Part shown: in pieces, positions 1-62,091 of the stretch | How positions within the stretch are numbered: the stretch's first letter is position 1 | How the letters are laid out: every line of letters begins with the position of its first letter | Source of the DNA: Raillietiella orientalis | Taxonomy: Eukaryota | Reading direction: 5' to 3' | Assembly (NCBI GenBank): GCA_036172245.1 | Contig: JAYWIR010000005.1 | Coordinates: forward strand, 3,534,001 to 3,598,000 | Length of the DNA stretch: 64,000 bases | Position numbers and translations under genes: made by a program | The notes under the pieces: model-generated | The model's input: only the letters and a program-made list of their open reading frames with translations | Told to the model about the DNA's origin: nothing | Databases searched by the model: none

Positions 1-747
1 TCCATCAAAGGGACTCGAGGATTCCCCTTGCCTCAAAGGGCGATGAGCAGGAGGTCCTTGATCCTCTTTTTTATTTCTCTGGGGACGGGGCAAACAAAAA
101 GTAGGGGGCGAAGGATGAGAGCCGCAAAAGCGTTCCATACTGCGGCCCGTTCCGGCAAGCGGAACTTCCCGTACAGGAAAAAGCGGATCGCCAAATCCAC
201 TTTTTGGAGACGGCCTAACCATGCTTCTGAAGAGGATAAGTCCCCCAGCGAAACGCCAAGGTACTTCAGATGCGTGCTCGTTGGGATCCCCAGGCGAATC
301 CAGTCTGGCCGTCCCACTCACGTCGCTCCAACTGCCGCCATCGACGATTTTGCCCTGTTGACCCGTAGCCCTGTCCCACGGCTTAGCAGGTCGAAGAAAT
401 ATTCGACTGCTGTTGCCGGGGCGAACATTGGCAGCAGTAGCAGGAGATCGTCGGCATATGCGGACACGGCAGGCGTGCCATGGCACGAGCTTGGCAAGGC
501 AGCCAAAGTCATCCTGTATGCTCTAAGCAACAACTCGAAATAGGTGCTAAAGTGCAGGGGACTGATGCTATCGCCCTGCCGAATCCCGCGGGGCACCGGC
601 ACGCCGTACACGTTCTGCGCTCTGAAAGAGATGTTTGTTAACGCGGCTCGCCAGCAGGAGAGCAGGTACGCCGTTAATGTAAGAGTGAAGCCCATGTAAT
701 GCAGAAGCTCTAGGAGGAGCTCCTGGTCCACACAGTTGAACGCCTTG
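1..747 (-). mobile_element. Non-LTR retrotransposon RT fragment (family N), host of element A1
   Basis: Minus-strand KAFNCVDQELLLELL...GIRQGDSISP...YADDLLL...KYLGV with a stop at ~318; it ends at the A1 5' junction. Confidence 0.9.
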
Positions 748-760
748 TGCGCTCCAGGGT

Positions 761-769
761 GGACGTGTT
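761..769 (+). promoter_or_regulatory. Conserved 5' GGACGTG(T/C)T motif, putative internal promoter element (representative copy)
   Basis: Lies within ~15 nt of all ten intact 5' ends (families A, B, D, F, G, H). Confidence 0.6.
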
Positions 770-843
770 TTCTCGGTGCTCCTCGTGCCAGGAAGTCTCC
801 CCCAGTGCAGGCGTCGTGTGGTTCGGTGGTCGATCAGGCAGCG

Positions 844-2520
844 ATGCCTGACACGACCACCAGGGATGGCCAGGGGGCAGCGGCAACGCCGCCCCCAGAG
901 GCGATGGAGAGCCAGGGGGCCACGGCAACGTCGCCCCTAGAGGCGATGGAGGTGGGGACATCCGTCCCCACAGAATCGGTCAGCGCTGCAGCGCAAACGT
1001 GGAGCGCCCTTGTGTCGGCGCCATCGCCTGCAGCCGCGGCGGAATTGTCGGCCTATGTAGAGGAGGGGTACAACCCCTCATTGTTCTACAAGGTAGGCAA
1101 TTTATATTCTTTAGAGAGCGCGCGCGCCTTATCGAAGGGCATGCGCGCTCTCGATGTGAAAGAGGAGGAGCTCAGCGCTATGACCATCCGCAGCGGGGGT
1201 CAGAACGTTGAGGTCATCCGCAAACATGCAGAGCTAGCCCAACGACTGCTTAAAACCCCCGTTGTGATGGGGACGCGCAGGCTCCTCCCCACTACGGCGG
1301 ACCGCAGCATGGTGGTCCACCTGTTAGGCGTCACCGCGCGAATGCGCAAAGAACAGGTTCGCGCCGCTTTGGAACAGTTCGGAACGGTCCACGCGCAGTG
1401 GACGAAAGTAAGTCCTTTCGAGGACTACACATGACTGCAACACGGCCTCACTGCTGCGCGCTTGACCGTTCGGGAAGGCTGCACTCTTCCCCACAAACAG
1501 GTGGTCGAAGACGAAACCGTCGTCCTCTGGTATGTGGGGAAGCCGAAATACTGCGGCTTCTGCAATACGTCGGGCCACCTCAAAAAGAGGTGTCCCAACG
1601 TGCAGTGTCAAGTATGCGGCACAATGGGTCACACCAGGGAGGTGTGCCCAAAAGCAGCAGTGCGGGTGGTTTCCAAGAGAAACCTTAAAAAACGCGCCCG
1701 GCTTTTGCAGAAGAGGCTGGCGGCGAAAGCTGCCGCGAAGGCTGTGCAACCCGCGAACAAGACCCAGGCCGCAACCGAGACCCCGGCGACCAACGCCGAA
1801 AAAGTTGAGGGAGCCGGCCAGGAGACTGGGTGCCAAGTGGCAACGGCCAAAAAATCAAAGAAGGAGAGGAGGATGGAAAAGAAAATCGCCTACCAACAGA
1901 AGAAGAAAGAGCAGGGTAGCGCGATAATTAAAGAGTGCAGCGTCGTTGTCGAACGCGTTCTCGATGTTGCCGAACGCTGCCGGAAAGAACTCGCCGCTAC
2001 CGACGACCTCCCCTCTGTTGACACAGTCAACAGCGAAGGGAGCGAGCCGGCGGCAACGACCGTCATCGAGACCACCATCGATGACGTAGCCTTCGCGCGA
2101 GCCGCGGAGGAGCTGGCAGCCTCGTTGCAGCCAGAACCATTCAAGGCTGGCAGGAAGGCCGTAAGGCGTCCGGACTCCCCTCAGGAGTTCCCCACTTCCG
2201 ACCCCGAGGTGGAGGCCGGAAGCGCAGCCTCCGTTTCCACGGCACCGCGCAAGAAGTTTGGACGTAAGTACACAAAGCCAAGGAAGCTCGTCTCCCCCGT
2301 CGAAGGGGAAGAGATGGCTTCCGCAAGCGAGGGTGCCATGAGCGTGGGAAACTCTCGGGATCCGTCGCCCGAGAGACTCCCACGCGCGAACACGAAGGGG
2401 ATGGAGGGGGTGGAGGCCGAACAGGTGCCTCTGGTGCCTAAGAAGGCCGAAACTCCCATGGATATCCCGCCCGCCTCGCAAGAAGAGGGCTCCCCCACAC
2501 CTCAATCTTCCCAGCAGTAA
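844..2520 (+). pseudogene. A1 ORF1, gag-like nucleic-acid-binding protein with two CCHC knuckles; one in-frame stop at 1432-1434
   Basis: CGFCNTSGHLKKRC and CQVCGTMGHTREVC; ORFs 736..1434 and 1462..2520 are in the same frame. Confidence 0.9.
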
Positions 2521-3963
2521 TGCCGGGAATCTCCTCCCGCCGTCGTCTGCGCATCGCCGTTTGGAACGTGAACGGCATGACAGACGCCGGCAGGAGACGA
2601 GACATGGCCGCCCTTCTCGAGTCCTACGACCTTGCGCTGCTGCAGGAGATCCACGTGATCTCTGCAGAACACGCGCAAGAGATCGAACGGATCTCCGGAG
2701 GGCGGCTATGGTACAGGTGTGGGAGAGCGAAAAGTTGCGGTGTCGCCTACCTGCTTCGTCCAGCCGCCGAGGCCGAGGCTCGGGGCGTGCGGTTGTACGA
2801 TCACGGTCGTGTCGGCCAGCTGACTCAGGTGGTCCGACTCGATCGATCTGATCGTCACGAACGTGTACGCACCGAGCGGCAAGTACCTGATGAACAGGAG
2901 GGCGAGGAAAGCGTTTTTCCTTGCACTGCGGCAAAACTGGCTGACCAAAGCAGGCGTGCGGAATGCCCATCTGGTTGCAGGCGATTTCAACGTTCGCCTG
3001 AAACCAGATGGGCAGAATCCCGAGCGTGACCTGGTCAACGAGGTGTGCATGGCGGTGCACACCTGTAATTTGTTGGCCAGTGCACCGGGGATGGAAGACA
3101 GCATTGACCACGTGTTTCTTGACGAGCACCTGTGCCCTCGCTTGGGCAGGCGCGGCAAGTTACCGTGAGAGCTGTCCGACCATCGCCCGCTAGTCCTCGA
3201 GATCCATCCGCGCGACAGGGGCCCTCTCTCGTCAGCGTGGCGTCTCCCAGGGGACTGGCTGAAGCTCCCGGACGCGGCGGAACATCTTCGCACGTTCATA
3301 CGGAGCTTCAGGCTGCGGACACTCCAGGATTGGGACCGCTTCAAGCGGTCGGTCCAGTAGTTCTGCGTCCAGTTCCCTCTGCACCGCCTACCTACGGATT
3401 TTGGAACGCGGTCCGTAACGAACGAGCCTACCTGCAGGCCCGTCGGTACGCCAGGACCCCCGACATCCACAGACTGGCGGAATACAAAGCGGGAGCCGAG
3501 AGGCAAGCTTGGCAGTCCGGATCGGCCAGCTTTCTGGACGATCAGGGAAAGGAGCACTTGGCACCTGCCCAAATCCGCGGCCTGCTGCGGAGTTACTACT
3601 CCTCCCTGTATGGCAGGGCTCCTCCGGAGAGGAACGTCTCATGACTCCTGCTTCCGGAAGGCGCTCCAGCGATCGGGGAGGAGCAAAGAAAGACCCTCGA
3701 GGAGCCTTTCACGATGGACGAGATTTTCTCGGCCATCGGATAGCTCAATGGGCGAAAGGCTCCAGGGGAGGACGGCCTGCCCGCGGAGTTTTATCAAACT
3801 TTCGCGGCTCAGCTTACCTCCCTGGTACAGCAACTCACCTTGCTGATACGCGAAACAGGTGTCGTTCCCGCCTCGTTCTGTTCGGCAAGGGAGCGGCTCC
3901 TCCCTAAGGGAGGAGATCTGAGGAGCATGAACAACTGGCATTTCATCACAATAGTGAATGCGG

Positions 3964-3978
3964 ACGCCAAGTTGATAG
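3964..3978. repeat. 15-bp target-site duplication of B1 (ACGCCAAGTTGATAG; partner 11810-11824)
   Basis: Perfect direct repeat flanking B1. Confidence 0.95.
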
Positions 3979-4184
3979 TTGCCACCCGGACACGCCGGGG
4001 CGTTTATTTCAAATTCTCTTTGGTTCGTGGTACGAGGCCCTACTACGGCCAACTCAACTGGACCTGCCGGGTCGCCGGTACGCAGACCGGCGCGACTCTC
4101 CTCGGCAGCGGAAGGGGGTGGGGGAAAAAACAAAAAGAAAAATAAAACATAAAAACAAAAAGATTTGGGAGGGTTGGGGAGGGA

Positions 4185-7100
4185 TCACTGACCACTGGGA
4201 GGAGGGTCCATCCTTCGCAGGATGCCCTCGAGGTCCGTCCGTATAATCCCCAGGTGGGGCCATCTGGTCACAATCCGCAGGTAGCGGACTGCAAGTACGA
4301 CGGCATCCCTGTCGTGATTCAGTCTTCCGACGTTGCCTCAGCACGTCACAATCCCGCGTACGCACCGAAGTGGGCCAGGGCAGCGGCTGGACGCAGGGCA
4401 GCATGCACGAACAGAAGCCGAAAAACGTCTCTGGGCTGGCTGCCCTCCTGGATCCGTAGGGAAGCACGAAGACGTTCCCACAGGGGTCGGAGGGCAGCAC
4501 AATCAACAAGGAGATGGAGGAGAGTTTGCCGTTCCCCACACCTGATGCAAGTAGGATCTACTCGACCCCTGGTCCAGTGGTGGCGGCGTGCGTTGCAGGG
4601 TAGACCCCAATGCAACAACAGAAGCGCCGACTCCTGCCACTTCAGGGGGAGGATCCTAGTTTCAATTAATACCGGGGGCCACTTCAGGTCATCCGGCTGG
4701 ATGCCGAGTAGCTCGCTCCATCTCTGCAATCCTCTCGGCTGGACACTAGGGGTACTGGCGTCCGCCAGTTTACCCGTGGACCAGCCGCTGATCAACTTCT
4801 CCTTGCCTGCGATGCGGCAGGAGACTTGCCACCTAGGCTTGCGGCTGCTAAAGAGCGCCCTTCTCAACAAGGGCATCGCCGTAGCTAGGGGGGTTGTCTC
4901 TGCCCACGTGCTTCTCGCGGGACACTGGAGTATCTTCCGCAGAGTGCAGCGGGAATAGGCGCCGCGTCGCAGGCAGTTCCACATCTCTTCATTCTTCTCA
5001 TTGATCTTCGCCCACGTGCCAGCTGTCTCCTCCAGCCATGCGGAGGAGTTGGCGGGGCTGCATACCATCCAGCCGTTTTCCTTCGCCAGAGTTGCCATGC
5101 ATCCCAGGAGAAGTCCGCATCTCTTGATCTTCTTGCCACGGCAGAGAAGATAGGACGCGAGACCCTCCGTCCCGGATACACGGCTGGCAAGGAGTCGGGC
5201 CGGAACGCACGAAGAAGTGCTCCATAACTTCGCTGCGATGGCGAGGGTTCGCCATCGCAGCTGAATCTCTACTCACTCCATCGTCAAGAGGCCGAGACCG
5301 CCATCCCGACGTGGAGCACACAAGTCCTTCAACGGGACTCGGGCCTCCTTCTTCCCCAAAGGGCAATTCTCAGGCGGTCCTTTGTCCGTTTTTTCAACTC
5401 TCTGGGGACGGGGCAAACAAAAAGCAGGGGGCGGAGGATGGGAGCCGCGAACGCGTTTCATACCGCGGCCCGTTCCGGAAGGAGAAACTTGTCTTCCAGG
5501 AACGGGCCGATCGCCGTTTCCACTTTTTGGAGGCAGCCGGACCACGCTTCCGCAGGGGAGTAGTCCCCCAACGGCACACCAAGGTACTTTAAGCACCTCG
5601 CCGTGGGGATCCCCAAGCTGACCCAGTCCTGCTGCCCAGCCCACGCCGCACCGACTGGAACCACCGTCGACTTCGCCCTGTTCACCGTAAGTCCGGTCCC
5701 GCGGCTAAGCAGATCGAAGAAATCCCCGACCGCCTTCGCCGGGGTGGACATCGGCAACAGGAGCAGAAGATCGTCGGTATACGCTGCTACGGCGGGCGTG
5801 CGATGGCACGAGCTCGGCAAGGGGCCAAAGTCACCCTGTACGCTCTCAGCACCAACTCAAAGTAGGTGCTAAAGAGCAGAGGACTGAGGCTGTCGCCCTG
5901 CCGTATGCCCCGCCGTACTGGCACACCGTACGCCATTTGACCTCTGAAAGAGATATTGATCAGCGCGCTGCGCCAGCAAGAGCGCAGGTAGGTCAGTAGG
6001 GAGGGAGGGAAGCCCATGCGTCCCAGGAGCTCCAGCAGGAGATCCTGGTCCACGCAGTCAAACGCTTTATGCAGATCGACTGCGATCGCTAGGGCTCCCT
6101 TCCCCACCTGGGAGTCCTGTCCCTGCCCGGCTGACGCCCCCAAAGCGGGGCTCCCAATCCTTCTCTCTTCCTTTTCTTTCCTACTCTGCACATGAAACCA
6201 TGTGCTCGCGAAGAAGAGGTTGGCCTCCATACTTCGCCCGGGAACAGCGTAAGTCTGCTCCGGGCTAATTATGGAATTGGCCACCTGCCCCAGACGCGAA
6301 GCCCACAGTCCGGCGATCAGCTTGGCGTCCGTGTTCACAATTGTGATCGGACGCCAGTTGCTGAGTTTCCTGAGGTCTCCTCCTTTCGGAAGGAGCCTCA
6401 CTCTGGCTGACCGAAAGGAGGCGGTTACATCGCCTTCATCTCGGATCAGCCTTGTCAACTCAAGCACCAGGGGTGCCAGCTGTGCCGCGAAGCATTGAAA
6501 AAACTCCGCAGGCAGGCCGTCCTCCCCTGGTGCTTTCCGCCTCTTGAGCCTTTTGATACTGGCGAGAATTTCGCCGGTGGTGAAAGGCTCGTCGAGGTTT
6601 TCCTTCTCCTCCTCCCCTATTGCCGGGGCACCGTTCGGAAGCAAGAGCCGAGAGGCATCTTGGTCCGGGGGCGCCCTGGCGTAAAGGGAGGAATAAAAAC
6701 GCCGCACGAGGTGCCGTATTCTAGCCGGAGCCTAGTGCTTCCGGCCCTGGTCGTCCAGCAAGCTGGCCGATCCGGATTGCCAGGCTTGACGTTCGGCCCC
6801 GGCTCGGTACTCTGCCAGGCGACGGACATTGGGGGTCCTCGCGTAACCACGGGCATACAAGTACGCTCGTTCGTTACGGATGCCCTCCTCAAATCCCCGG
6901 GGCAGGAGGTGCAAGGGGAACTCCTCGCAAAACTCGCGGACCGAGGCCTTAAAAAGGTCCCAATCATTGAGATTGCGGAGGGTGACGCCTCTCAGGAATT
7001 CGCGAAGGTGTTCTTTCGCACCTGAGAGTCGCGTCCAGTCCCCAGGCAGACGCCACGCCCTGGATGGGGGGCCCTTGTCGCGCGGGCACACCTCGAATAT

Positions 7101-9700
7101 CAACCGGAAATGGTCAGACAGCTCCGACGCAACTTTCCCCCGTTTGCCGACCCGTGAATACAGATCGACATCCAGAAAGACGTGGTCGATGCTGCTGACC
7201 ATTTCCGAAAGATCCCCTAACAAGTTGCGCGTGCGCATGGCGGCGCACAACTCGTTAGCCGTCCGTTCCTGTGCGTGTGGCTCAGCTGACAGTAGGCGGA
7301 GATTAAAGTCTCCCGCTATCAGGTGAGCCACGCGCACGTTCGCTTCCGCCAGCCAGTCGCGCTTCAGGGTTTCCAGGAACGCCTTACGTTCCTGGTACCT
7401 GGTAGGACCGCTCGGAGCGTACACATTTGTTACGACGAGGTCGATCGTGTCGGACCACCTGAGAATCAGCTGGCCGACACGACCGGCTTCGTCAAAGCGC
7501 ACGCCCTTCACGGCTGCGTCGACTGCCGGCGTCATAAAAAACGCGACGCCGCAGGTGTATCGGGTGCCGCATTGCCACATCAGGCATCAGGCAGGGCGAC
7601 AGCTTAAGCCCCTTGCTCTTCAGCATCTTCTTTGAGTTGGTGCTGAGGGCAAACAGGCTGACGCTGGCCAACCTGCCGAGCTCTTGTCCAGGAACGCCGT
7701 CCGTGGCGGCCTATGCTGACGACCTGCTTCTCCTCTTACCCATGACCACCCCGGCATCCAGTCTCGAGGATTTCTTCGAGCTGATTCGCCGGGGAGCGGG
7801 CATGAGCGTAAACCGGAGCAAGAGCGTGGTCGTACCTATTGGTGCGGCGTGGGAGGGGCAGTCCGACTGGATCCGCCTGGGGATCCCGACCGCTTCCTCC
7901 GTGCAATATCTGGGCGTTCCGCTGGGGAACATCAGCCCAATGGAAGTGTGGTCGGACTGCCTTCGGAAGGCTTCGAATGCCCTGAGCCCGTTCCACCATG
8001 GCAGGTTCGTCCTGCCGGAGCGCGCCACGATATGGAAAACCTTCGTTGCCCCTCTCTTGCGCCCCCTGCTTTTTGTTTGCCCTCCCCCCTACTCGGCCAA
8101 GCTCCAGGCGCACAGCCTGTTGAGGAACGCTCTGTGGGGACCTGCGAGGTCCAGGATCCGCCTCAAAGACTTGGCGGCTCCGCGTCGGGATGCTGGCTTA
8201 GGCATCCTGACGCTGGAGAGAATCGAGCTGCAGGTGCAGCTTCGGATGTTGGCCCTGTGCGCCAACCTTTGGTCCACTCCGTGGTGCGCTCCCGCGCGCC
8301 TGCTTCTGCAGCGCTGCACAGGCAGCGATGGACTTCTGTCGCTGCGGCCGCACACGGAGCGCGCCACGAGAAGCTTCGGTTTCCCCTTGAAACCGCTGTA
8401 TCGGCTCCTGGAAGCCCAGGGATGGATCTCCTGCCGCCCAACGAACTTTAAAGCCTGGCGGCAGGAACCGTTGCATGGCTGGGCAAAGCACCAGGATGTT
8501 TCCCTCCTGGAACTCCGTTGCGCTCACCTCTCCCCGTACTGCACGGTGGATGAGGTGTGCAACAGCCAGGAGAAGTGGACCCGCCTGGCCGTCACCCCCC
8601 TCGAAGACGCACTGTCAGCCCTCAGGGCAAGAGATGACAGTTGCGAACCGGCGAGATGGGAGGTCGCCTGCACCATCGCAGGAACAACGCGACCTATTGG
8701 CGGCTGGAAGACTTGCGAGCTGGCGGACGCCGCCACGCCTCGCCACGTTCCGAAGGGACTCCTTCGGTGGAGCGAACACTTGAGTGTGCCCCTTGAAGAA
8801 CTTGTGGTTCCTCCCTCGTGTCTGAACACTTCTGTGTTCCCCCTTTCGTGGAAGCAGGACGTGATTATGCTGGTGCATTGGGGTTTTCACTCCAACCAGC
8901 GCACGGACCTTGTTTCCGGGGGAGTCGTCTCCCCAAACTGTAAGCGGTGCGGGGAAGTGGAAACGCTCCCGCACCTGCTCCTGGACTGCGGTGCCCTTCT
9001 AGGACTCTGGCGGAGGCTGGCCTCAGCTCTCCTGCACCAGGGGGACACCGCGAGGGATTTGATGCTCCGCTTCTTCACGCCAGGCGGCCTGTCATTGGGT
9101 GCTGTTGTTGCAACCGTGTGTTGCACCCGCGCCATCGACAAGGCCCACCGAGAGTTGGAGAAGCTGGCCATCCTTCGTCAGCCCACCGGATTAGCCAGCG
9201 CAAACATGTCGTCGGCTGCCCAGTGGGCCCATCTGCCACAGGGCGTGAGGAGAGAGATCGCCGGCATCCATCGCCGGTTCTGAAAGGAAGGAACGGCTGA
9301 ACCAAAGACCCCTGTCCCCTGCCCTCCATATCTTTATTTTTATTTTTTCTATACGGTGTATTTGTGGTCCCCTCCCTCCCGTTCCGGACTTTCGGCATAC
9401 CGACCTGCGTGTCGGGGATCCCACCCCCTTCGTCTCTTGTTTTCCCCTTTGTCCGGGAACCCTGTTCCCGGATAGTTTATAATAAACGCCCCGGCGCACC
9501 CGGGTGACAATCAACCGTCCCCCTGCGATCCTTTCGATCTCCTGGGCGTTCTCCGCGGTGATCACGTGGATCTCCTGCAGGAGTGCCAGGTCGGAGTCAC
9601 GCAGGGTGGCGGCCGTGTCCCGTCTGTTGCCGTCGTCGCGCAGCCCGTTCACGTTCCAACAGGCCACGCGTAATCGACGGCGACAGGCGAGCCCAGGTGT
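4185..9700 (-). pseudogene. B1 ORF2 (APE + RT + Cys/His finger), interrupted by C1 and frameshifted
   Basis: CWNVNG...LQEIH...GGRL|MWQCG...GDFN...SDH; KAPGEDG, WRPITIVNTDAK, DLHKAFD, QGDSLSP, YTDD; CIRCGE. Confidence 0.9.
7583..9510 (+). mobile_element. 5'-truncated element C1 (RT 3' half, open to 9283), antisense inside the B1 endonuclease
   Basis: Starts at GIRQGDSL; YADD; CKRCGEVETLPH; terminus AATAAACGCCCCGGCGCACCCGGGTGACAA; B1 sequence joins across it with only 3-4 bp duplicated. Confidence 0.92.
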
Positions 9701-41240: not shown

Positions 41241-41242
41241 AG

Positions 41243-41465
41243 GCGTGCAAACGTGTTGTCTTTGCGCTTTTGCCGCACCAGTTTGCGAAGCTTTTCTTTA
41301 GTGTTCTTTTGAGTGGTGAATCGCCGTTATTTCATGGCAGGACTGCCTGAGGACGCCACGGTGGATATTGGAGGAGAAGAGGATTGTTGCGCTCCTTAAT
41401 ACACGCAGGTAGGGGAAACTGCACCAAGAAGGAGAGAACAAACGCTCCCTTTTCCAAGGACACTA
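41243..41465 (+). mobile_element. Degenerate 5' end and ORF1 start of a B-like element (P)
   Basis: TGCAAACGTGTT (decayed 5' motif); MAGLPEDATVDIG resembles B1 MAEMPEETAMDIG. Confidence 0.55.
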
Positions 41466-41536
41466 ATGAAGACGGGAAGCCCAAGCGTTCAGGAAGCTCC
41501 AGCACGAGATTTTTGTTGACGCTGTCGAACGCCTTG
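41466..41536 (-). mobile_element. Short O-like RT fragment that is the A3 target
   Basis: KAFDSVNKNLVLELPERLGFPSS; similar to 40565-40640. Confidence 0.75.
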
Positions 41537-51113: not shown

Positions 51114-54100
51114 ATTTCAATCTCCGCCTGCTAACAGGTGAGCCGGAAACACAGGTAAACGCGATGAACGAGTTGTGCGCCGCCATGCGTGCGCGCAACT
51201 TGTTCGCGGGTGAGAGAAGAATGGTCCGCAGCATCGACCACGTCTTCCTCGACGCTGACCTGTGTTCACGGGTCGGCAAACGGGGGAGGGTTGCGTCAAC
51301 GTTGTCGGACCATTCCCGGTTAATTTTCGAGATGCGGCCTCGCGACAAAGGACCGCCATCCAGGGACTGGCGTCTGCCGGGGGACTGGACGCGACTCTCA
51401 GGTGCGAAGGAACACCTTCGCGAATACCTGAGAGGCGTCACGCTCCGGAATCTCCAAGACTGGGACCTTTTTAAGGAATCGGTCCGGGAATTCTGCGAGC
51501 AGTTCCCCCTGGATCGCCTGCCCTCCGGATTCGGCGAGGGTCCTCGCAACCATCGGGCCTATTTACAGGCCCGTAGGTACGAGCGAACCCCTAATGTCCG
51601 TCGCCTGGCCGAGTACCGCGCCGGGGCCGAACGCCAAGCCTGGCAATCCCGGTCGGCCAGCTTGCTGGACGACCAGGGCCGGGAATGTTCGTCCCCGGCG
51701 TCGGTACGGCATCTCGTGCGGAGTTATTATTCCTCCCTTTACGCCAGGGCGCCCCCGGATCAAGATGCCTCTCGGCTCTTGCTTCCGGATGGTGCCCCGG
51801 CAATAGGGGAGGAGGAGTCGTTAAGCCTCGATGAGCCTTTTACCACCGGCGAAATTCTCGCCGGTATCAAAAGGCTCAAGAGGCGGAAAGCTCCAGGGGA
51901 AGACGGCCTGCCCGCGGAGTTCTATCAGAGCTTCGCGGAAGAGCTGGCACCCCTGCTGCTTCAGCTGACAAGGCTGATCCGAGACGAAGGCGATGTTCCC
52001 GCCTCGTTTCGGTCAGCCAGAGTGAGGCTCCTTCCGAAAGGGGGAGACCTTAGGAATTTAAACAACTGGCGTCCGATCACGATTGTGAATACGGACGCCA
52101 AGTTGGTTGCCGGGCTATGGGCTTCGCGTCTGGGGCAGGTGGCAGAATCCATTATTAGCCCAGAGCAGACATATGCTGTTCCCGGGCGAAGTATGGATGC
52201 CAACCTCTTCTTCGCGAGCACGTGGATGCACGCACAGAGGTGTCAAAAGGAAGGGAAAGGAAAAATCGGCAACCCCACTTTGGTGGCCGCCAGCAGGACA
52301 GGGAATGGACTCCCAGGCGGGGAAGGGGGCCTTAGCGCTCGCAGTCGATCTCCATAAACCGTTCGACTGTGTTGACCAGGGGCTTTTGTTGGAGCTCCTG
52401 GGTCGCATGGGCTTCCCACCCTCCTTGATCAACTACCTGCGCTCCTGCTGGCGCCATGCGATAATTTCCGTCTCTTTCAGCGGTCAGAAGGTGCATGGCG
52501 TGCCGGTGCGGCGGGGCATCAGGCAGGGAGATAGCCTGAGTCCCCTGCTCTTCAGCTCCTAGTTTGAGTTGGTGCTGAGAGCCTACATTGTGACTTTGGC
52601 CTCCTTGCCTAGCTCGTGTCCCGGCACGCCCGCCGTAGCAGCCTATGCCGACGACCTTCTGCTCCTGTTACCTATGTCCACCGCGGCGAAGGCGGTCGGA
52701 GACTTCTTCGATCAGCTCAGCCGTGGGACCGGACTGCAGGTCAACAGGGCGAAGTCGTCGGTGGTGCCAGTAGGTGCGGCGTGGGCAGGGCAGCAGGACT
52801 GGGTCCGTCTGGGGATCCCCACGGCGAGGTGCTTCAAGTACCTTGGTGTGCCGTTGGGTGACTACTCCCCTGCGGAAGCGTGGTCCAGCTGTCTTCAAAA
52901 AGTCGAGACGGCGATCGGCCCGTTCCTGGAAGGCAAGTTTCACTTGCCGGAACGGGCCGCGGTTTGGAACGCCTTCGCGGCCCCCATCCTCCGCCCCCTG
53001 CTTTTTGTTTGCCCCGCCCCAAGATTAGTTAAAAAGAGGACGAAGGACCTCCTCCGCATCGCCCTTTGGGGCAAGGGGAGGCCCCGAGTCCCTCTGCAGG
53101 ACTTGTGCGCTCCGCGTCGGGACGGCGGCCTTGGCCTCCTGACGCTGGAGCGCGTGGAAATCCAGCTGCGGTGGCGAACCCTCGCCATCGCAGCGAAGAT
53201 GTGGAGCACCCCTGGGTGCGTTCCGGCCCGCCACCTCGCCAGGCGTGTGTCCCGATGCGAAGGACTCGCGTCGTTTCTTCTGTGCCCTGGCCGGAAGATC
53301 CGAAGATGCGGCCTTATGCTCGGACGCATAGCAACCTTGGCGAAGACGAACGGTTGGATGGTTTGTGGCCCCGCCAACTCCTCCGCCTGGTTAGAGGAGT
53401 CTGCTGGCACATGGGCTAAACTGAACCGGAGGAGCGAAAACCACATGAACTGCCTGCGAATCGGCCCATACGCCAACCGCACCCTGCGGGAAATACTGGA
53501 ATTTCCTCGGAGTCGCAGGTGGGCGTTGACGACCCCCCTTGCTATGGCGATGCCCTACCTCCTGAGGGCGCTTCAGGATTGCCAGAAGCCGAGGTGGCAA
53601 GTCACCTGCCAGATCGCAGGCAGGAAGAAGATGTTAAGCGGCTGGACCACAGGAGAACTGGCGGACGCCACGACCCCGAGCGTCCAGCCGCGTGGACTAA
53701 TGAGATGGGGCGAGCTGCTCGCCATCCCTACGGATGTGCTGAAGTGGCCCCCGGTATTAAAGGAATCCAGGATCCTGCCCCTTAAGTGGCAAGAGTCGGC
53801 GTTGCTTTTGTTGCACTGGGGTCTACCCTGCAACGCGCGCCGCTTCCACTGCACGAGGGGAGCTGTGGATCCTGCGTGTGCCAGGTGCGGGGAGCGGGAG
53901 TCGCTTCCCCACCTTATTGTGGATTGTGCTGCCCTCCGATACCTTTGGGAACGGTTCGGGACGACCCTCGGGCTCCCTACGGGCAGCACCCCCAGAGACG
54001 TTCTTCGGCCCCTCTTCGTGAAGGACGCACTGCAGCCAGCCGCAGCCATCGCAGCCTTGTGCTGTGTCCGTGGCATCGTGGCGGCATGGAGCGACGCCAA

Positions 54101-56314
54101 TAACGAAGGAGTGGGTCCACACGCGAGGGATGTCGTCCCATACGCCCAACGCTTCATGCGGAGAGCTGCCGGATGGCCCCAACTGGGGAATATACGGACG
54201 GACCTCAAGGGCTTCCTTCAACGGATGGGCCCTCCTCACAGCGTTCAGTGATCCCTTCCCTGCCCTCCAACTTCTTTTCGTCTGTTTATGTTTTTTATTT
54301 TTCTTTTTGTTTTATCCCCATCCCCCTTCGCTGCTGAGGAACGCTACGCTGGGCTGCGTCCCGGCGTCCCGGCAGGTCCAGTGCATATGACCGTGAGCGG
54401 GGCCTTGTACCGCGGATGTAGAGTTGTTTTTTTTTAAAAAATAAACGCCCCGGGCGTACCCGGGTGTAAACCTCCAAGGCTGGCAAGAAGGCCGTAAGGC
54501 GTCCGGCCTTTCCTCAGGAGTCCCCCACTTCCGACCCCGAGGTGGAGGCCGGAAGCGCAGCCTCCGTTTCCACGGCACCGCGCAAGAAGGCTGGACGTAA
54601 GTCCACAAAGCCAAGGAAGCTCGTCTCCCCCGTCGAAGGGGAAGAGAAGGCTTCCGCAAGCGAGGGTGCCATGAGCGTGGGAAACTCTCGGGACCCGTCG
54701 CCCGAGAGACTCCCACCCGCGGACACGGAGGGGATGGAGGGGGTGGAGGCCAAACAGGTGCCTCAGGTGCCTGAGAAGGCCGAAACTCCCATGGACATCC
54801 CGCCCGCCTCGCAAGAGGAGGGCTCCCCCACACCTCAATCTTCCCAGCAGTAATGCCGGGAATCTCCTCCCGCCGTCGTCTGCGCATCGCCGTTTGGAAC
54901 GTGAACGGCATGACAGACGCCGGCAGGAGACGAGACATATCCGCCCTTCTGGAGTCCTACGACCTTGCGCTGCTGCAGGAGATCCACGTGATCTCTGCAG
55001 AACAAGCGCAAGAGATCGAACGGATCTGCAGAAAGCAGCTATGGTACAGGTGTGGGAGAACGAAAAGTTGCGGTGTCGCCTACCTGCTTCGGCCAGCCGT
55101 CGAGGCCGCGGCTCGGGGCGTGCGGTTCGACGATCACGGTCGTGTCGGCCAGCTGACTCTCAGGTGGTCCGACTCGATCGATCTGATCGTCACGAACGTG
55201 TACGCTCCGAGCGGCAAGGACCTGATGAACAGGAGGGCGAGGAAAGAGTTTTTCCTTGCCCTCCGGCGAGACTGGCTGACCGGAGCAGGCGTGCGGAATG
55301 CCCATCTGGTTGCAGGCGATTTCAACGTTCGCCTGAAACCAGATGGGCAGAATCCCGAGCGAGACCTGGTCAACGAGGTGTGCATGGCCGTGCACACCTG
55401 TAATTTGTTGGCCAGTGCACCGGGGATGGAAGACAGCATTGACCACGTGTTTCTTGACGAGCACCTGTGCCCTCGCGTGGGCAGGCGCGGCAAGTTACCG
55501 TGCGAGCTGTCCGACCATCGCCCGCTAGTCCTCGAGATCCATCCGCGCGACAGTGGCCCCCCCTCGTCAGCGTGGCGTCTCCCAGGGGACTGGCTGAAGC
55601 TCCCGGACGCGGCGGAACATCTTCGCACGTTCATACGGAGCTTCAGGCTGCGGACACTCCAGGATTGGGACCGCTTCAAGCGGTCAGTCCTGGAGTTTTG
55701 CGACCAGTTCCCTCTGCACCGCCTACCTACGGGTTTTGGGACCGGGGTCCGTAACGAACGAGCCTACCTGTAGGCCCGTCGTTACGCCAGGACCCCCGAC
55801 ATCCGCAGGCTGGCGGAATATAAAGCGGGAGCCGAGAGGCAATCCTGGCAGTCCCGATCGGCCAGCTTACTGGACGATCAGGGCCAGGAGCACTCGGCAC
55901 CTGCCCAAATCCGCGGCCTGCTGCGGAGTTACTACTCCTCCCTGTATGCCAGGGCACCTCCGGAGAGGAACGTCTCATGACTCCTGCTTCCGGAAGGCGC
56001 TTCAGCGATCGGGGAGGAGCAGAGAAAGACCCTCGACGAGCCTTTCACGATGGACGAGATCCTCTCGGCCATCGGAAAGCTCAAGAGGCCAAAAGCTCCA
56101 GGGGAGGACGGCCTGCCCGCGGAGTTTTATCAAACTTTCGCGACTGAGCTTACTTCCCTGGTACAGCAACTCACCTTGCTGATACGCGAAACAGGTGACG
56201 TTCCCGCCTCGTTTCCTTCGGCAAATGTGCGGCTCCTCCCTAAGGGAGGAGATCTGAGGAGCATGAACAACTGGCGTCCCTTCACAATAGTGAATGCGGA
56301 CGCCAAGTTGCTGG

Positions 56315-58919
56315 TTGCCACCCGGTCACGCCGGGGCGTTTATTAAAAATTCTCTCTGATTCGTGGTACGAGGCCCCACTACGGCCAACTCAGCTGGACC
56401 TGCCGGGTCGCCGGTACGCAGACCGGCGCGACTCTCCTCGGCAGCGGAAGGGGGTGGGGGAAAAAACAAAAAGAAAAATAAAACATAAAAACAAAAAGAT
56501 TTGGGAGGGTTGGCTAGGGATCACTGACCACTGGGAGGAGGGTTTATCCTTCGCAGGATGCCCTCGAGGTCCGTCCGTAAAATTCTCAGGTGGGGCCATC
56601 TGGTCACAATCCGCAGGTAGCGGACTGCAAGTACGACGGCATCCCTGTCGTGACTCGGTCATCCGACGTCGCTCCAGCACGTCACAATCCCGCGTACGCA
56701 GCAAAGTGCAGCCAGGGCAGCGGCTGGACGGAGGATATCATGCACGAACAGAAGCCGAAAAACGTCTCAGGGCTGGCTGCCCTCCTGGATCCGTAGGGAG
56801 GCACGAAGACGTTCGCACAGGGGTCGGAGGGCAGCACAATCAACAAGGAGGTGGGGGAGGGTTTCCCGTTCCCCACACCTGATGCAGGTAGGATCTACTC
56901 GACCCCTCGTCCAGTGGTGGCGGCGTGCGTTGCAGGGTAGACCCCAATGCAACAACAGAAGCGCCGACTCCTGCCACTTTACGGGGAGGATCCTAGAACC
57001 AATTAATACCAGGGGCCACTTCAGGTCATCCGGCTGGATGCCGAGTAGCTCACCCCATCTCTGGAGTCCTCTTGGCTGGACACTAGGGGTACTGGCGTCC
57101 GCCAGATCACCCGTGGACCAGCCGCTGATCAACTTCTCCTTGCCTGCGATGCGGCAGAAGACTTGCCACCTAGGCTTGCGGCTGCTGGAGAGCGCCCTCC
57201 TCAGGAAGGACATCGCCGTAGCTAGGGGGGTTGTCTCTGCCCACGTGCTTCTCGCGGGACACTGGAGTATCTTCCGCAGAGTGCAGCGGAAATAGGCGCC
57301 GCGTCGCAGGCAGTTCCACATCTCTCCGTTCTTCTGGTTTATCTTCGCCCACGTGCCAGCTGTCTCCTCCAGCCATGCGGAGGAGTTGGCGGGGCTGCAT
57401 ACCATCCAGCCGTTTTCCTTAGCCAGAGTTGCCATGCGTCCCAGGAGAAGTCCGCATCTCTTGATCTTCTTGCCACGGCACAGAAGATAAGACGCGAGAC
57501 CCTCCGTCCCGGATACACGGCTGGCAAGGAGTCAGGCCGGAACGCACCAAGGGGTGCTCCATAACTTCGCTGCGATGGCGAGGGTTCGCCACCGCAGCTG
57601 CTTGTCCACGCGCTCCAGCGTCAGGAGGCCAAGACCGCCGTCCCGACGCGGAGCGCACAAGTCCTTCAGTGGGACTCGGGGCCTCCATTTGCCCCAAAGG
57701 GCGATAAGGAGGAGGTCCTTCGTCCTCTTCTTGGATTCCACGGTGGGGGGCAAACAAAAAGCAAGGGGCGGAGGATGGGGGCCGCGAAGGCGTTCCAAAC
57801 CGCGGCCCGTTCCGGCAAGTGAAACTTGCCTTCCAGGAACGGGCCGATCGCCGTCTCGACTTTTTGGAGGCAGCTGGACCACGCTTCAGCAGGGGAGTAG
57901 TCCCCCAACGGCACACCAAGGTACTTGAAGCACCTCGCCGTGGGGATCCCCAGACGGACCCAGTCCTGCTGCCCTGCCCACGCCGCACCCATTGGCACAA
58001 CCGACGACTTCGCCCTGTTAACCTGCAGTCCGGTCCCGCGGCTGAGCAGATCGAAGAAGTCTCCGACCACCTTTGCCGGGGTGGACATTGGCAACAAGAG
58101 CAGAAGATCGTCGGCGTACGCTGCAACGGCGGGCGTGCCGGGGCACGAGCTCGGCAATGGGGCCAGAGTCACCCTGTACGCTCTCAGCACCAACTCAAAG
58201 TAGATGCTGAAGAGCAGGGGGCTGAGGCTATCTCCCTGCCTTATGCCCCGCCGCACCGCGACGCCATGCACCTTGTGACCGCTGAAAGAGACGGTAATTA
58301 TCGCATTCCGCCAGCAAGAGCGCAGGTAGGAAATCAGGGAGGGTGGAAAGCCCATGCGACCCAGGAGCTCCAAGAGGAGTTCCTGGTCTACACAGTCGAA
58401 CGCCTTGTGGAGATCGACTGCGAGCGCTAGAGCCCCCTTCCCCGCCCGGGGGTCCCTTCCCAGCCCGGCTGGCGGCCCCAATGTGGGGTTGCCGACTTTC
58501 CCTATCCCTTTCTTTTCTCTTCTCTGCAGGTGCACTCATGTGCTTGCGAAGAAGAGGTTGGCATCCATACTTCGCCCGGGAACAGCATAAGTCTGCTCCG
58601 GGCTAATTACGGATTCTGCCACCTGCCCCAGACGCGAAGCCCATAGCCCTGCGATCAACTTGGCGTCCGTATTCACGATCGTGATCGGACGCCAGTTCTT
58701 GAAATCCCTGAGGTCTCCCCCTTTCGGAAGGAGCCTCACTCTGGCTAACCGAAACGAGGCGGGAACATCGCCTTCGTCTCGGATCAGCCTGATCAACTTA
58801 AGCAGCAGGGGTGCCAGCTCTTCCGCGAAGCTCTGAAAGAACTCCGCGGGCAAGCCGTCTTCCCCTGGAGCTTTACGCCTCTTGAGCCTTTTGATACCTG
58901 CGAGAATTTCGCCGGTGGT
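56315..58919 (-). mobile_element. 5'-truncated element B2 (B-type 3' end, F-like RT), antisense inside the A3 RT
   Basis: Terminus CCGGGTGGCAA at the same NADAKL position as B1; RT motifs present. Confidence 0.88.
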
Positions 58920-58940
58920 CCAGCTAAGGTTCATCAGCTC

Positions 58941-61752
58941 AATCCTGGCAGTCCGGATCGGCCAGCTTGCTGGAAGATCAGGGCCAGGAGTACACGGCAC
59001 CTGCCCAAATCCGCGGCCTGCTGCGGAGTTACTACTCCTCCCTGTATGCCAGGGCACCTCCGGAGAGGAACGTCTCATGACTCCTGCTTCCGGAAGGCGC
59101 TCCAGCGATCGGGGAGGAGCAGAGAAAGACCCTCGACGAGCCTTTCACGATGGACGAGATCCTCTCGGCCATCGGAAAGCTCAAGAGGCGGAAGGCTCCA
59201 GGGGAGGACGGCCTGCCCGCGGAGTTTTATCAAACTTTCGCGGCTGAGCTTACCCCCCTGGTGCACCAACTCACCTTGCTTATTCGCGAAACAGGTGACG
59301 TTCCCGCCTCGTTTCGTTCGGCAAATGTGCGGCTCCTCCTTAAGGGAGGAGATCTGAGGAGCATGAACAACTGGCGTCCCATCACAATAGTGAATGCGGA
59401 TGCCAGGTTGCTAGCAAAGGTTTGGGCAGAGAGGTTGAGACGGGTTGCCAACATCTTCATCAGCCCGGAACAGACATATGCTGTTCCCGGGCGAAGCATG
59501 TAGGCGAACCTGTTCCACGCTTCCACCTGGCTAGAGCTCCAACATGAAAGGAGCTTGGTGCGCAGCCGGAATTCCGGTGCGTGCGCCGGCAAGGGGTTGG
59601 ATGGTCGGGTGGGGGAGGGAGCCCTTGCGGTCGCAATCGACTTGCGGAAAGCATTCGATTGCGTCGACCAGAATCTCCTTCTGGAGCTTCTGGAACGCTT
59701 AGGCTTCTTGGCCTCATTAGTGGCCTATCTGCGCTCCTGCTGGCGCGACGCGCTCATCAACGTTACTTTCAGCGGGCAGAACGTGCACGGCGTGCCGGTG
59801 CGGCGTGGGATCCGGCAGGGAGACAGCCTGAGCCCCTTGCTCTTCAGTACCTACTTTGAGTTGGTACTGAGAGCGTACAGGGGAACTCTGGCGCACCTGC
59901 CGCACGATTGTGCCGGTACGCCGGCCGTTTCAGCATACGCGGACGACCTTCTGCTGCTGCTCCCTATGTCCACCCCGGCTACGGCGGTCGAGGAGTTCTT
60001 CGACCTGCTGCATCGAGGAACCGGACTTGCGGTGAACAGGGCGAAGTCGTCCGTGATGCCAGTTGGTGCGGCGTGGGCAGGGCAGCAGGACTGGGTCCGT
60101 TTGGGGATCCCCACGGTGAGGTACTTCAAGTACCTTGGTGTGCCGTTGGGGGACTACTCCTCTGCGGAAGCGTGGTCCGGCTGCCTCCAAAAAGTAGAGA
60201 CGGCGATCGGCCCGTTCCGAGGTGGCAGGTTTTTCCTTCCTGAACGGGCCGCGGTTTGGAACACGTTCGCGGCTCCTCTTCTCCGCCCCCTGCTTTTTGT
60301 TTGTTCCCCCACAGAGAGAATTAAAAAGCGGACAAAGGACCTCCTCCGTATCGCCGTTTGGGGCAACGCGAGGGCCCGAGTCTGCTTAGAGGACTTGTGC
60401 GCTCCTCGTCGGGACGTTGGTCTGGGCCTCCTGACGCTGGAGCGGCTGGAGCTTCAGCTCCAGTTCCGATTGTCGGCACTCGTTCCAGAGTTCTGGTGCA
60501 CCTGTTGATGCGTCCCTGCACGTCTCCTTCTCCAGCAAGTCACTGGCGAGACGGGACTGACGTCGTTTCTTGCACTCCGTCGCCGCGTCAACCGATGCGG
60601 ACTCCAGCTACGGAGGGTGGCTGCGCTGTATCGGAAAAACCCAGGATTGCTCACCTGTCGCCCTTTGAACGGTAGTGCCTGGTTGTAGGAAACCGTTCAA
60701 ACGTGGGGACAGTTCGGCATGCAACGCTCCCAACAGGAACGGAGGTTTCTGTTTGGGGGTTACAGAAGTTGCACGCTTTTCGAGATCCTGGAGGATCCAA
60801 AGAAGAGAGCGTGGGCAGGAAGAACCCCCCTCGACGCTGCGCTGCCCTCCCTGATGGAAGATCTGGACAGCGATGTTGCGGCGAAGTGGGAGGTTTCAGT
60901 TACAATCTCCGGAAAGGAGAAGGAGATAGGAGAGTGGGAGACGGGCCAGTTAACAGACGCTGCGTCCCCGAGTACGCCTCCCAATGGACTTCTGCGCTGG
61001 GGCGCTCTGCTCGTTGTTCCTATTGAACATCTGAAGTGGCCCCCGATTCTTATGAACACTTCCATCTTTCCCCTAAAATGGCAAGAGTCGGCATTCCTGT
61101 TGCAGCACTGGGGACTCCACTGCAACGCCCGCTGTCACCACTGGACCTGGGGAGCGGTGGACCCCAATTGCGTCAGGTGTGGGGAACGGGAGTCCCTCCC
61201 CCACCTGCTAGTGGATTGTGTTGCCCTTCGGCCACTTTGGTTTCGCTTTGCCGCGGCCATCGGAATCCCCTGCGGCAACCCCAGGGACGCACTGAAAGCC
61301 CTCTTCGTTGCCGACGCCCTTCGGCCAGCGGCCTCGTTAGCAGCTCTGTGCTGCTTACGCGGGATCGTCACCGCTTGGAGCAAGGCTACGGGAGGACAAC
61401 GCGACCAGGGTGCCATCCAGCCAGCCTCCCAGTTCCTGAGGAGGGCGTCCCTATGGCCCCACCTGGATCCAGGAATACAGAAGGAGCTTTCCGGCATCCT
61501 GCAAAGGATGCAACGGCCCCACCAGCAACTGTGATCCCTTCCCTTACCCTCCCAACTTTTCTTTTCTTTTTTGTTTTGTTTTTTGTTTTTCGCCCTTCCC
61601 CCTTCTGCCGTGATGGACCGTACCGGTCTGCGTACCGGTGTCCCGGCAGGCTCTGTGTTTCTTCGTGCGTGGCTGGAGCAATGGTCCAGCCACTGCACGT
61701 CTTTGTAAATGTTGGTTTTATAATAAACGCTTCGGCGAAATCCGGGTGAAAA
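58941..61752 (+). mobile_element. Family A 3' half (A4): RT + C-terminal region + 3'UTR
   Basis: ORF2 ends at 61534; terminus AATAAACGCTTCGGCGAAATCCGGGTGAAAA, followed by TCGAACGCCTTA. Confidence 0.9.
61722..61752 (+). terminator. Conserved 3' terminus AATAAA-CGC-N4-GCG-N4-CCGGGT-N3-AA (representative copy)
   Basis: Found at nine 3' ends from six families. Confidence 0.75.
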
Positions 61753-62091
61753 TCGAACGCCTTATGGAGATCGACCGCGATCGCTAGGGCCCCCTTCCCA
61801 GCCCCGGTGTCCATTCCCAGCCCAGCTGGCGGCCCCAAAGTGAGGTTGCCAATCTTTCCGCCAGTGTCATTTAGGCAGCGCTGCACATGGAACCACGTGC
61901 TCGCGAAGAACAGGTTGGCATCCATACTTCGCCCGGGAACAGCGTATGTCTGCTCCGGGCTAATTATGGAGTCTGCCACCTGTCCTAGACGCGAAGCTTA
62001 CAGTCCAGCGACCAGCTTGGCGTCCGTTTTCACAATTGTGATCGGACGCCAGTTTCCTAGGGATCTCAGGTCTCCTCCCTTCGGGAGCAGA
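61753..62091 (-). mobile_element. B/F-like RT fragment (Q), host of A4
   Basis: LLPKGGDL...WRPITIV...AIAVDLHKAFD, cut at the A target site. Confidence 0.88.

Follow-up and report, generated by a model that had tools for sequence, protein, structure and literature searches.

Long interspersed nuclear elements (LINEs) with specific integration sites are known for host multicopy genes, telomeres and one DNA transposon, and nested LINE clusters are known as algal centromere material. R1 and R2 in ribosomal DNA (rDNA) and TRAS and SART in telomeric repeats occupy one nucleotide position of a conserved multicopy target and form tandem and 5'-truncated copies. Here we describe a 64-kb stretch of Raillietiella orientalis DNA (GenBank assembly GCA_036172245.1, contig JAYWIR010000005.1, positions 3,534,001 to 3,598,000 of the forward strand), in which nested LINEs of several related families appear to have inserted into one another at fixed coding motifs. 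We call the whole stretch the window and the set of families the guild; the evidence consists of this window plus a few short contig joints.

Among the described systems, the specificity of R1, TRAS and SART lies in the apurinic/apyrimidinic-type (APE) endonuclease, according to excerpts of PMC1919474 and PMC7265360. An excerpt of PMC6719617 lists the insertion of Tx1 into Tx1d and of Tourist into Tourist as cases of transposable elements that prefer other transposable elements as targets, and the Tx group is described as target-specific in part of PMC3747384. The nested, centromere-linked L1 clusters of Zepp and ZeppL are stated to 'target existing copies' in excerpts of PMC8226300, PMC3446292, PMC9940879, PMC11005252 and a 2025 CENH3 preprint, and these excerpts name no defined target nucleotide. 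A full-text literature search, in which subscription journals and Repbase reports are thinly covered, returned no description of several LINE families that each have a fixed site in the open reading frames (ORFs) of the others; an earlier description of a multi-family network of mutual fixed sites may exist.

The explanation that we favor, with a probability of roughly 0.68 for the explanation as a whole, is that a single radiation of L1-type LINEs, sequence-specific and target-primed, built the window as a nest of transposons only, with conserved coding motifs of sister LINEs as the targets. Judged from the junctions, site-specific integration into such motifs is well founded for families A and F and is probable for families B and C.

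Junctions and target words

A preliminary description of this DNA had placed the junctions of each family at one motif of a sister element, namely A at the antisense of reverse transcriptase (RT) KAFD, B at the antisense of RT DAKL, D at sense APE GDFN, F at sense A-ORF1 QPEPSKA and, as single cases, E at AQEI, C at GGRL, G at SVVVE and H at (S)LMRDTG. All of these positions were recovered within 1-2 nt, together with element ends and target site duplications (TSDs), at five of five places for A, at both listed places for each of B, D and F, and in the single cases. The orientations agreed as well, A, B, C, E, G and H lying antisense to their hosts and D and F sense. The first nest runs in the order H1 (-), A1 holding B1 that itself holds C1, A2 holding E, D' (-) within F' (-) within A5 (-), and G. 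It is followed by a middle part with K (-), H, J and A' (-), and by a second nest with H2 (-), A3 holding F that itself holds D, B2 (-), A4, H4 (-) and C2. The individual features are as follows (window coordinates, strand).

1-746, minus: H1, B/F-like host RT fragment downstream of KAFD (tblastn, reference residues 565-827); ends in an A target copy
747-14162, plus: A1, full-length family A in pieces 747-3978 and 11812-14162, interrupted by B1 at DAKL; 5' motif at 761-771
3979-11811, minus: B1, full-length family B, antisense in A1, in pieces 3979-7582 and 9511-11811, interrupted by C1 at GGRL
7583-9510, plus: C1, 5'-truncated family C, antisense in B1; 3' motif at 9484-9506, tail ACAA
14163-14173, plus: single target copy TCAAACGCCTA at the A1 3' end / A2 5' end, head-to-tail tandem
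14174-19675, plus: A2, family A in pieces 14174-16092, 19000-19587 and 19588-19675, holding E at AQEI
16093-18999, minus: E, 5'-truncated family E, antisense in A2, with RT pieces; 3' motif at 16097-16119, tail AGAA
19676-23394, minus: D', family D, cut at KAFD by the A2 3' junction; full-length 5' end at GDFN of F'
23395-25693, minus: F', 5' part of family F (5' untranslated region (UTR), ORF1, APE to GDFN), sense inside A5
25694-25891, minus: A5, family A ORF1 fragment from SVVVE to QPEPSKA, of the A2 subtype; host of F' and G
25892-27000, plus: G, 5' end and ORF1 of a guild member (ORF1 matches), antisense in A5; 5' motif at 25899-25909, right limit nominal
27853-28898, minus: K, RT fragment of the D clade, interrupted at (S)LMRDTG by the H 5' end; left limit uncertain
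28899-29800, plus: H, 5' end and ORF1 of a guild member (ORF1 matches), antisense in K; right limit nominal
31330-36000, minus: J, divergent near full-length LINE, ~27% amino acid (aa) identity to D ORF2; limits approximate
38400-41297, minus: A', older A-lineage copy with the DAKL site uninterrupted, 77-80% nt identity to A; limits approximate
41457-41535, minus: H2, A-lineage host fragment of 79 nt, from the part downstream of KAFD; its end is a perfect target copy, TCGAACGCCTT
41536-56314, plus: A3, family A in pieces 41536-42894 and 54469-56314, with F at QPEPSKA and then the B2 3' end at DAKL
42895-54468, plus: F, full-length family F, sense in A3 ORF1, in pieces 42895-45205 and 51114-54468, holding D at GDFN
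45206-51113, plus: D, full-length family D, 5908 nt, sense in F; tail ATAA
56315-58939, minus: B2, 3' part of a family B element, antisense in A3 at DAKL; mosaic
58940-61752, plus: A4, family A 3' part from A coordinate 3504; DAKL uninterrupted
61753-62100, minus: H4, B/F-like host RT fragment upstream of KAFD; opens with a perfect target copy at 61753-61763
62101-64000, plus: C2, 5'-truncated family C, running off the window

The TSD of family A is the 11-nt word TCGAACGCCTT. It stands at 736-746 as TTGAACGCCTT, followed by the A1 5' end, at 14163-14173 separating the 3' end of A1 from the 5' end of A2, at 19676-19686 directly after the A2 3' end, at 41525-41535 directly before the A3 5' end, and at 61753-61763 directly after the A4 3' end. 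B1 is flanked by GCCAAGTTGATAG at 3966-3978 and 11812-11824 (13/13 identical), with a second B 3' junction at 56302-56314, and D by ATTTCAAT at 45198-45205 and 51114-51121 (8/8 identical), with a second copy of the D/F junction at 23394/23395. The 12-nt TSD of F, A(A)CC(C)TCCAAGGC, lies at 42883-42894 and 54469-54480, and a second F junction at 25693/25694. In the single cases, E has an 11-nt TSD with 2 mismatches at 16082-16092 and 19000-19010 (GCGCAAGAGAT vs ACGCAGGAGAT), C meets GGRL at 9510/9511 (the TSD of the 5'-truncated copy C1 being 3 nt, TCA), and the G junction at SVVVE and the H junction at (S)LMRDTG fall at 25891/25892 and 28898/28899, respectively.

Target words of 11-13 nt (for A, B, D and F, TCGAACGCCTT, CTATCAACTTGGC, GAGATTTCAATCTC and AACCTCCAAGGC) were found at 0-1 mismatch almost exclusively at the homologous codons of the window, so that the coincidences among junctions are not chance matches. 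Empty paralogous sites are also present in the window, for F in A1 and A2, for D in B1, for B in A4 and A', for E in A1 and A3, and for C in F and F'. The words of different families have no common motif, and the base preceding the first nick, as read from the junctions, is G in 5/6 families. The KAFD codons of family A itself (12058-12069 and 59648-59659, antisense) have the sequence TCGAATGCTTT, which differs from TCGAACGCCTT by two synonymous changes; 2-mismatch KAFD variants are likewise present in E, B1 and F, and none of the 2-mismatch sites is occupied. The occupancy of A targets, 4/9 at no more than one mismatch and 0/5 at two, comes from too few sites to count as evidence.

Identity, shared ends and relatives of the elements

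The GC content is 51-62% across the window. Tblastn with the window's own ORF2 (47174-49900) and ORF1 frames as queries found LINE coding pieces end to end on both strands, and the 64 kb consist of nested LINEs throughout, with transposons only. No Rfam family was found in the window, and its tandem repeats lie exclusively inside ORF1/5' regions, with no further satellite. Elements are ~5.6-5.9 kb long, with a CCHC knuckle in ORF1 and an APE endonuclease and RT in ORF2. In a Pfam scan of 21 long stop-to-stop frames, 11 had a match and 10 matched no family; RVT_1 exceeded the cut-off in six frames and fell below it in two more, Exo_endo_phos was found in one, and zf-CCHC in two, a third frame scoring 20.6 bits, just short of the cut-off of 20.8. 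The D ORF2 matched PF03372 at residues 26-233 (50.4 bits) and PF00078 at residues 474-745 (72.1 bits), which is the arrangement of N-terminal APE-like endonuclease plus RT that defines ORF2 of the LINE/L1 superfamily. Human LINE-1 ORF2p was its best solved relative in the PDB (E 2e-43), with the APE part matching L1-EN chains. The hallmarks of target-primed reverse transcription are present in the form of TSDs of 8-13 nt (A, B, D, E and F) and of 5' truncation, which occurs in C1, C2 and E, each at a different point.

The families have common termini. Full-length copies open with a GTGCGGACGTGTTTTT-like motif; its form GGACGTGTTTT occurs, at no more than one mismatch, at 9 places in the window, every one of which is an element start, and the start of H is a 2-mismatch version read by eye (GTCACGTACGGACGTGCTTCTG). 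In B1, for example, the 5' motif lies at 11797-11807 and the 3' motif at 3983-4005, ORF1 spans 9703-11769, and ORF2 covers reference residues 6-888. Families A-F end in AATAAACGCCCCGGCG-N3-CCGGGTG followed by a short family-specific tail of the NNAA type (AAAA in A, GCAA in B, ACAA in C, ATAA in D, AGAA in E and TA in F). A scan with this 3' motif gave 12 matches. Eight of them mark element ends of families A-F, of which there are nine, and the others fall on three A 5' ends and on one spot inside C2; the ninth end, that of A1, is degenerate and was read by eye. In the nine alignable ends, the conserved block is the last 25 nt, and all nine finish in CCGGGTG (or CCGGGTA) and then 2-5 nt ending in A, with no A run longer than 5. 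A poly(A) tail of the mammalian or plant L1 type was absent from all nine, and such ends fit the 'stringent' 3' recognition type as it appears in an excerpt of PMC3747384. A 3' hairpin with 7 predicted pairs had 0 compensatory changes across the nine ends, and the conservation claimed here is that of the sequence alone. The 3' ends of G, H and K were sought in the partly parsed region of 25.9-41.5 kb and were not found.

Relationships were examined with a FastTree phylogeny of RT columns 486-802, built from 24 rows, that is, 11/17 extracted window copies and 13 database proteins; A3, F', D', C1, H1 and H4 were left out for having fewer than 200 columns. A1, A4, A', B1, B2, F, D, E, K and C2 formed, with the metagenome protein P0046, a clade with a support of 1.000 on a long stem. 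J was its sister (0.993), and the next named branch was a Closterium protein (0.896). The claim that the families are one radiation is thus borne out by ten window copies and P0046 in a single clade and by the common termini; J stands outside this tight clade and does not have the guild termini. P0046, encoded on a JGI metagenome contig of 2870 nt, was 59% identical in a full HMMER search and 56-73% identical to guild copies (71-73% to A4, B1 and B2) vs 30% to J, and nests inside the guild clade, so that the radiation is present in at least one metagenome sample. Apart from P0046, the HMMER search returned one 106-aa fragment, and everything else was at most 38% identical. The nearest named proteins, from a charophyte alga, fishes, a turtle and a pseudoscorpion, were 27-35% identical, and a word-index protein search with the D ORF2 gave 45 matches, the best at 20-30% identity. 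The turtle protein P0047 was rejected as a close relative, being a gene model with repeated RT pieces that is 31-43% identical. A metagenome search with the guild 3' motif returned 120 loci, all by chance and none with an ORF1/ORF2 tblastn match or an extended motif, and a scan of viral_contigs with P0046 gave 0 loci.

Several copies carry further marks of age or damage. C1 and C2 are 99.4% identical over 1268 nt (7582-8849 vs 62733-64000) and differ in their 5' truncation points; from these comparisons, family C appears to be by far the youngest and most recently active family of the window. The 5' flank of C2 is not at GGRL, and either host sequence was deleted at insertion or another site was used. 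Within the window, alignment ends cluster most strongly at 62088-62107 (17 ends), where H4 (-, reference residue ~462) meets C2 (+, ~427) in a short inverted repeat of RT sequence. In A2, a deletion joint at 19587/19588 fuses A coordinate ~3258 to the last ~88 nt of the element. The D copy is not intact, its ORF1 (45285-47207) being split into frames of 216 aa and 308 aa, and the cysteine-rich C-terminal zinc-finger part of its ORF2 (CVRCG...HLLLDC, 49903-50800) lies in another frame after the 898-aa ORF. The 3' end of A' adjoins the 5' end of an A-like element, N (ORF1 37184-38393); at this joint (38400-38480, minus strand) GCGAACG comes after a degenerate A' 3' end, ...AATAACCCGCGAAACCGAATGAGAA, and the N 5'UTR is homologous to that of family A, with GATTCGGTGGT in common. 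On its sequence, the joint looks like an older head-to-tail tandem resembling A1-A2. Between 41300 and 41456 (minus strand) lies another 5' end, GGAGCGTTTGTTCTCTCC..., which over 92 nt has 75% identity to the B1 5'UTR/ORF1 start; it adjoins H2 after '...SLVSLEK' and is cut by A' at ~41,300, a junction that the preliminary description did not list. B2 is flanked on both sides by 473 nt of A (A coordinates 3504-3978, at 55840-56312 and 58940-59412) that are 4.4% divergent, and this repeat is either an unusually long target duplication or the result of a deletion by which an A copy carrying B was joined to the following A of a tandem. Short tandem duplications occur in the ORF1 N-terminal part/5' region, with a 42-nt unit present twice in A1 (869-951) and A2 (14296-14378), 24/48-nt units in B1 (11432-11612), and 27-48-nt units in J (35526-35736), and they suggest that the ORF1 start varies, driven by repeats.

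Independent hits, copied junctions and rival explanations

The claim that each family has its own fixed site held for A and F, through repeated hits, and probably for C, through a contig; the replicates of B and D may have been copied. Likewise, an origin of the shared junctions by duplication, the alternative that the preliminary description had itself admitted, did not apply to A and F, and may apply to B and D. Family A hit one nucleotide position independently at least three times. Its ends adjoin four flanks of three lineages, since H1 and H4 are B/F-like, H2 belongs to the A lineage, and D' to family D. In terms of nt identity, H1 is 76% identical to B1, B2 and F vs 67-73% to other families, H4 ~81% to the same three vs at most 73% to others, and H2 matches A' at 66/79 nt vs 50-58/79 for B1, B2 and F. 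The same KAFD nucleotide and the same orientation recur every time in host lineages that are 67-76% alike, and these are therefore too far apart for gene conversion. The fifth place is the A1-A2 head-to-tail joint, with one target copy between the elements.

Family F hit the same ORF1 site twice, in two different A copies. F' and F differ at 120/2298 positions (5.22 +- 0.46%), and the flanks A5 and A3 differ at 24/186 positions (12.9%) and by a 9-nt indel, the deletion being common to A5 and A2. Because the flanks are 12.9% apart and the 9-nt deletion is shared with A2, the two F hosts represent different A subtypes. Furthermore, the block of high identity formed by F' and the D' inside it ends exactly at the F 5' end. 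The sequence-specific integration typical of the Tx1 group was thus seen for A in at least three independent hosts and for F in two.

Additional evidence came from the public DNA run X1, in which 47% of the sampled words of a 10-kb stretch were present. X1 Logan contigs were aligned to 42300-62299 at a likeness of at least 88%, and 12 joints were listed, with 162 further loose ends. At joint 44927>56319, with 'TTAT' between, a guild 3' end lies antisense at the nucleotide homologous to the C1 junction (GGRL), in an F-like host that is not in the window. Its flank and tail differ from C1/B1, which makes it another locus and a second GGRL hit. Joint 45197>51114 skips D exactly, with 9 letters shared and a short side of 21 letters, and represents an F copy without D. 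Joint 55016>56319 ('TTCT') was rejected as an independent E hit and most likely represents the window's own A2/E junction aligned to A3. The public runs X2 and X3 contained almost nothing of the stretch apart from low-complexity pieces.

A number of observations weigh against the explanation that we favor. For family D, insert and flank are equally diverged within error (D-D' 5.02 +- 0.36%, F-F' 5.22%), and the same is true of family B (B1-B2 3' module 6.05 +- 0.66%, A1-A3 flank 5.71 +- 0.41%), so the second case may be one event copied by gene conversion between two F copies or by co-duplication in D, and by gene conversion or duplication in B. For each of E, G and H there is a single case. 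In both A arrays, the host on the left side differs from that on the right (H1 vs D', H2 vs H4), which means that the nest has been rearranged, and no complete A insertion within a single host is present in the window. Three A targets without a mismatch, found in D, C2 and B2, carry no insertion. Two of the contig joints do not follow the pattern of one site per family. Joint 55320>56320, whose two sides are 16 letters apart, brings an E-like 3' end (…CCGGGTAAGAA) and 11 further letters up to the GDFN codons of an A-like copy in antisense, a place that differs from E's AQEI site. At joint 54466>45205, with 20 letters between and a depth of 2, a C-tailed end (ACAA) lies 16 nt from a D-like 5' end. 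They point either to extra families or to a specificity looser than one site each. The evidence as a whole comes from one window and a few contig joints with short sides of 21-31 letters. Finally, the B2 mosaic, with an F-like RT and a B-like 3' module, would also fit a determinant in the 3' module. Regarding the mismatched flanks, neither H2 with H4 nor H1 with D' can be the halves of one host, the pairs being of different lineages; H1 and H4 may be one host. As for B, the independence of B1 and B2 that had been read from 10.3% vs 5.4% (A1-A3) was withdrawn, the excess being due to the F-like RT part of B2, and a hint of independent hits lies in one TSD position, which is C in A3 and A4 vs A in both A1 copies.

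Part of this record would follow from copying at the DNA level. Nested insertions, few and random at first, would then have grown in number through segmental duplication, unequal recombination and gene conversion within a domain that is rich in repeats and possibly centromeric. The segment 19676-25857 is the reverse complement of 42731-48924 with 94.6% identity over 6.2 kb, and this inverted duplicate spans both the D/F and the F/A junctions; the equal divergences in D and B, the F-like sequence in the B2 mosaic and the mismatched A-array flanks favor such copying as well. It leaves unexplained that A ends stand at the same nucleotide and in the same orientation beside three lineages, that the F' block with D' stops at the F 5' end beside another A subtype, and that a contig carries a GGRL hit in a different host, and we regard it as unlikely. 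Regional targeting by chromatin or a tethering factor, combined with a short and loose nick preference, would turn the coincidences into hot spots in a small target space. A loose preference would give thousands of sites in ~60 kb of LINE sequence, and what is seen is the same 11-nt word at 5/5 A junction places and the same 12-nt word at 2/2 for F, with no common motif among the words of different families. The window does hold LINEs only, with no Rfam family and no satellite beyond ORF-internal repeats, G precedes the first nick in most families, and Zepp/ZeppL cluster by targeting existing copies according to an excerpt of PMC8226300; even so, this account seems improbable.

The specificity could also reside in the 3' module, that is, in the ORF2 C-terminal region plus 3'UTR or in pairing of read-through RNA with the nicked target, instead of in the endonuclease. 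B2 is the element that speaks for this, since it has B1's target, the GCAA tail and B1's 3' 1.3 kb at 6% divergence, and yet its RT is nearer to F (9.2% divergence vs 15.1% from B1). In a sliding comparison (B1 3979-6620, F 51830-54468), the B2 RT part from the 5' truncation point to ~57,650 is 84-97% identical to F and 75-91% to B1, and its 3' 1.3 kb 91-97% to B1 and 66-80% to F. Each family also has its own 4-nt tail, and the C-terminal region is as diverged as the APE between B1 and F. However, B2 is cut off on its 5' side and has no APE, so that the endonuclease type of its source is not readable, and its mosaic is either that of a recombinant source element or the product of gene conversion by the nearby inverted F copy, 2-7 kb away, which would give the same pattern after insertion. 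In addition, the tails do not pair with the target words, and we give a determinant in the 3' module little credence. That the nest is an artefact of assembly, made of collapsed or chimeric repeats, is barely credible. The region is highly repetitive, less than half of the sampled words of the 10-kb stretch occur in X1, the best public run, and among the contigs listed none bridges a junction by 31 letters on both sides; nevertheless, precise TSDs, complete ends and matching empty sites are unlike misjoins, and X1 contigs extend across the junctions of D, by 29 letters at its 5' end and by 19 at its 3' end.

Proposed mechanism and comparison with known systems

Under the explanation that we favor, each family would integrate by target-primed reverse transcription with TSDs of 8-13 nt, always at the same nucleotide position and in the same orientation, within a conserved coding motif that belongs to a sister family. 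A would enter antisense RT KAFD, B antisense RT DAKL, C antisense APE GGRL, D sense APE GDFN, E antisense AQEI, F sense A ORF1, and G antisense A ORF1. The family's own APE endonuclease would read a 10-13-nt word, possibly helped by the ORF2 C-terminal region, and would nick first at the left edge of the TSD and then again 8-13 nt further right. The common 3' element may serve as the recognition and entry signal for the RT. Re-insertion into the duplicated target would produce the head-to-tail A-A tandems, and later recombination and conversion among copies would shuffle the nest. B1 and F are sisters with different targets, and their aa identity is 73% in the APE and 71% in the C-terminal region vs 84% in the linker and 86% in the RT; this divergence favors the APE, and perhaps the C-terminal region, as the probable source of specificity.

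A 'partitioned guild' is the best reading of the window; we infer that the partitioning may be strict, with one family to one site, and that the nest may act as a 'self-renewing safe harbour'. A wider picture, which we offer tentatively and hold to be somewhat doubtful, is that at least eight L1-like lineages form a closed community with one another's genes as their sole habitat, each with its own endonuclease for a 10-13-nt word and with sites that renew themselves. In such a community, the words would sit in catalytic or conserved motifs (KAFD, DAKL, GDFN and GGRL), where loss at the protein level is barred and only a synonymous dodge is left. The KAFD codons of A would be such a dodge, TCGAATGCTTT instead of TCGAACGCCTT, and this variant would protect A from itself. 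The network would renew its own landing sites and build a gene-free, possibly centromeric, domain. If true, the guild would offer a concrete mechanism for self-building transposon-only domains, a natural set of related APE endonucleases with different 10-13-nt specificities from which L1-type DNA reading could be learned, and a tractable case of niche partitioning and of an arms race (synonymous escape) among genomic parasites.

Of the known systems, Tx1L of Xenopus (L1/Tx1 group), as far as the excerpts describe it, resembles the guild in that it is an APE-type LINE and inserts into another transposable element in a sequence-specific manner. However, Tx1L targets the DNA transposon Tx1d, whereas the guild targets sister-LINE coding sequence, with several families doing so mutually. 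R1/R2 and TRAS/SART likewise integrate at one position of a conserved multicopy target and have tandem and 5'-truncated copies, but they target host multicopy genes or repeats, whereas the guild targets other retrotransposons, and they belong to different clades, the best solved relative of the guild being L1 ORF2p. HeT-A, TART and TAHRE of the Drosophila telomere are similar in that several LINE lineages share and build one niche, as outlined in excerpts of PMC5537684 and PMC6581046; these elements attach head to tail at chromosome ends and use no defined internal words in each other's ORFs. Zepp of Chlorella/Coccomyxa and ZeppL of Chlamydomonas form nested, localized clusters by insertion into existing copies, and the whole window likewise consists of nested LINEs. 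The GC content of Zepp elements is given in an excerpt as ~61%, compared with 51-62% in the window. According to excerpts of the reports, Zepp and L1-1_CR have poly(A) ends (PMC3747384), whereas those of the guild are CCGGGTG-NNAA; CCHC domains are reported to be absent from Coccomyxa Zepp ORF1 (PMC5203782), whereas guild ORF1 carries a CCHC knuckle; and the ZeppL elements of C. reinhardtii make up one family (PMC9940879), whereas at least eight lineages with distinct sites are present here. Compared with all of these systems, what is new, as far as the literature search reaches, is how the nesting of LINEs is aimed.

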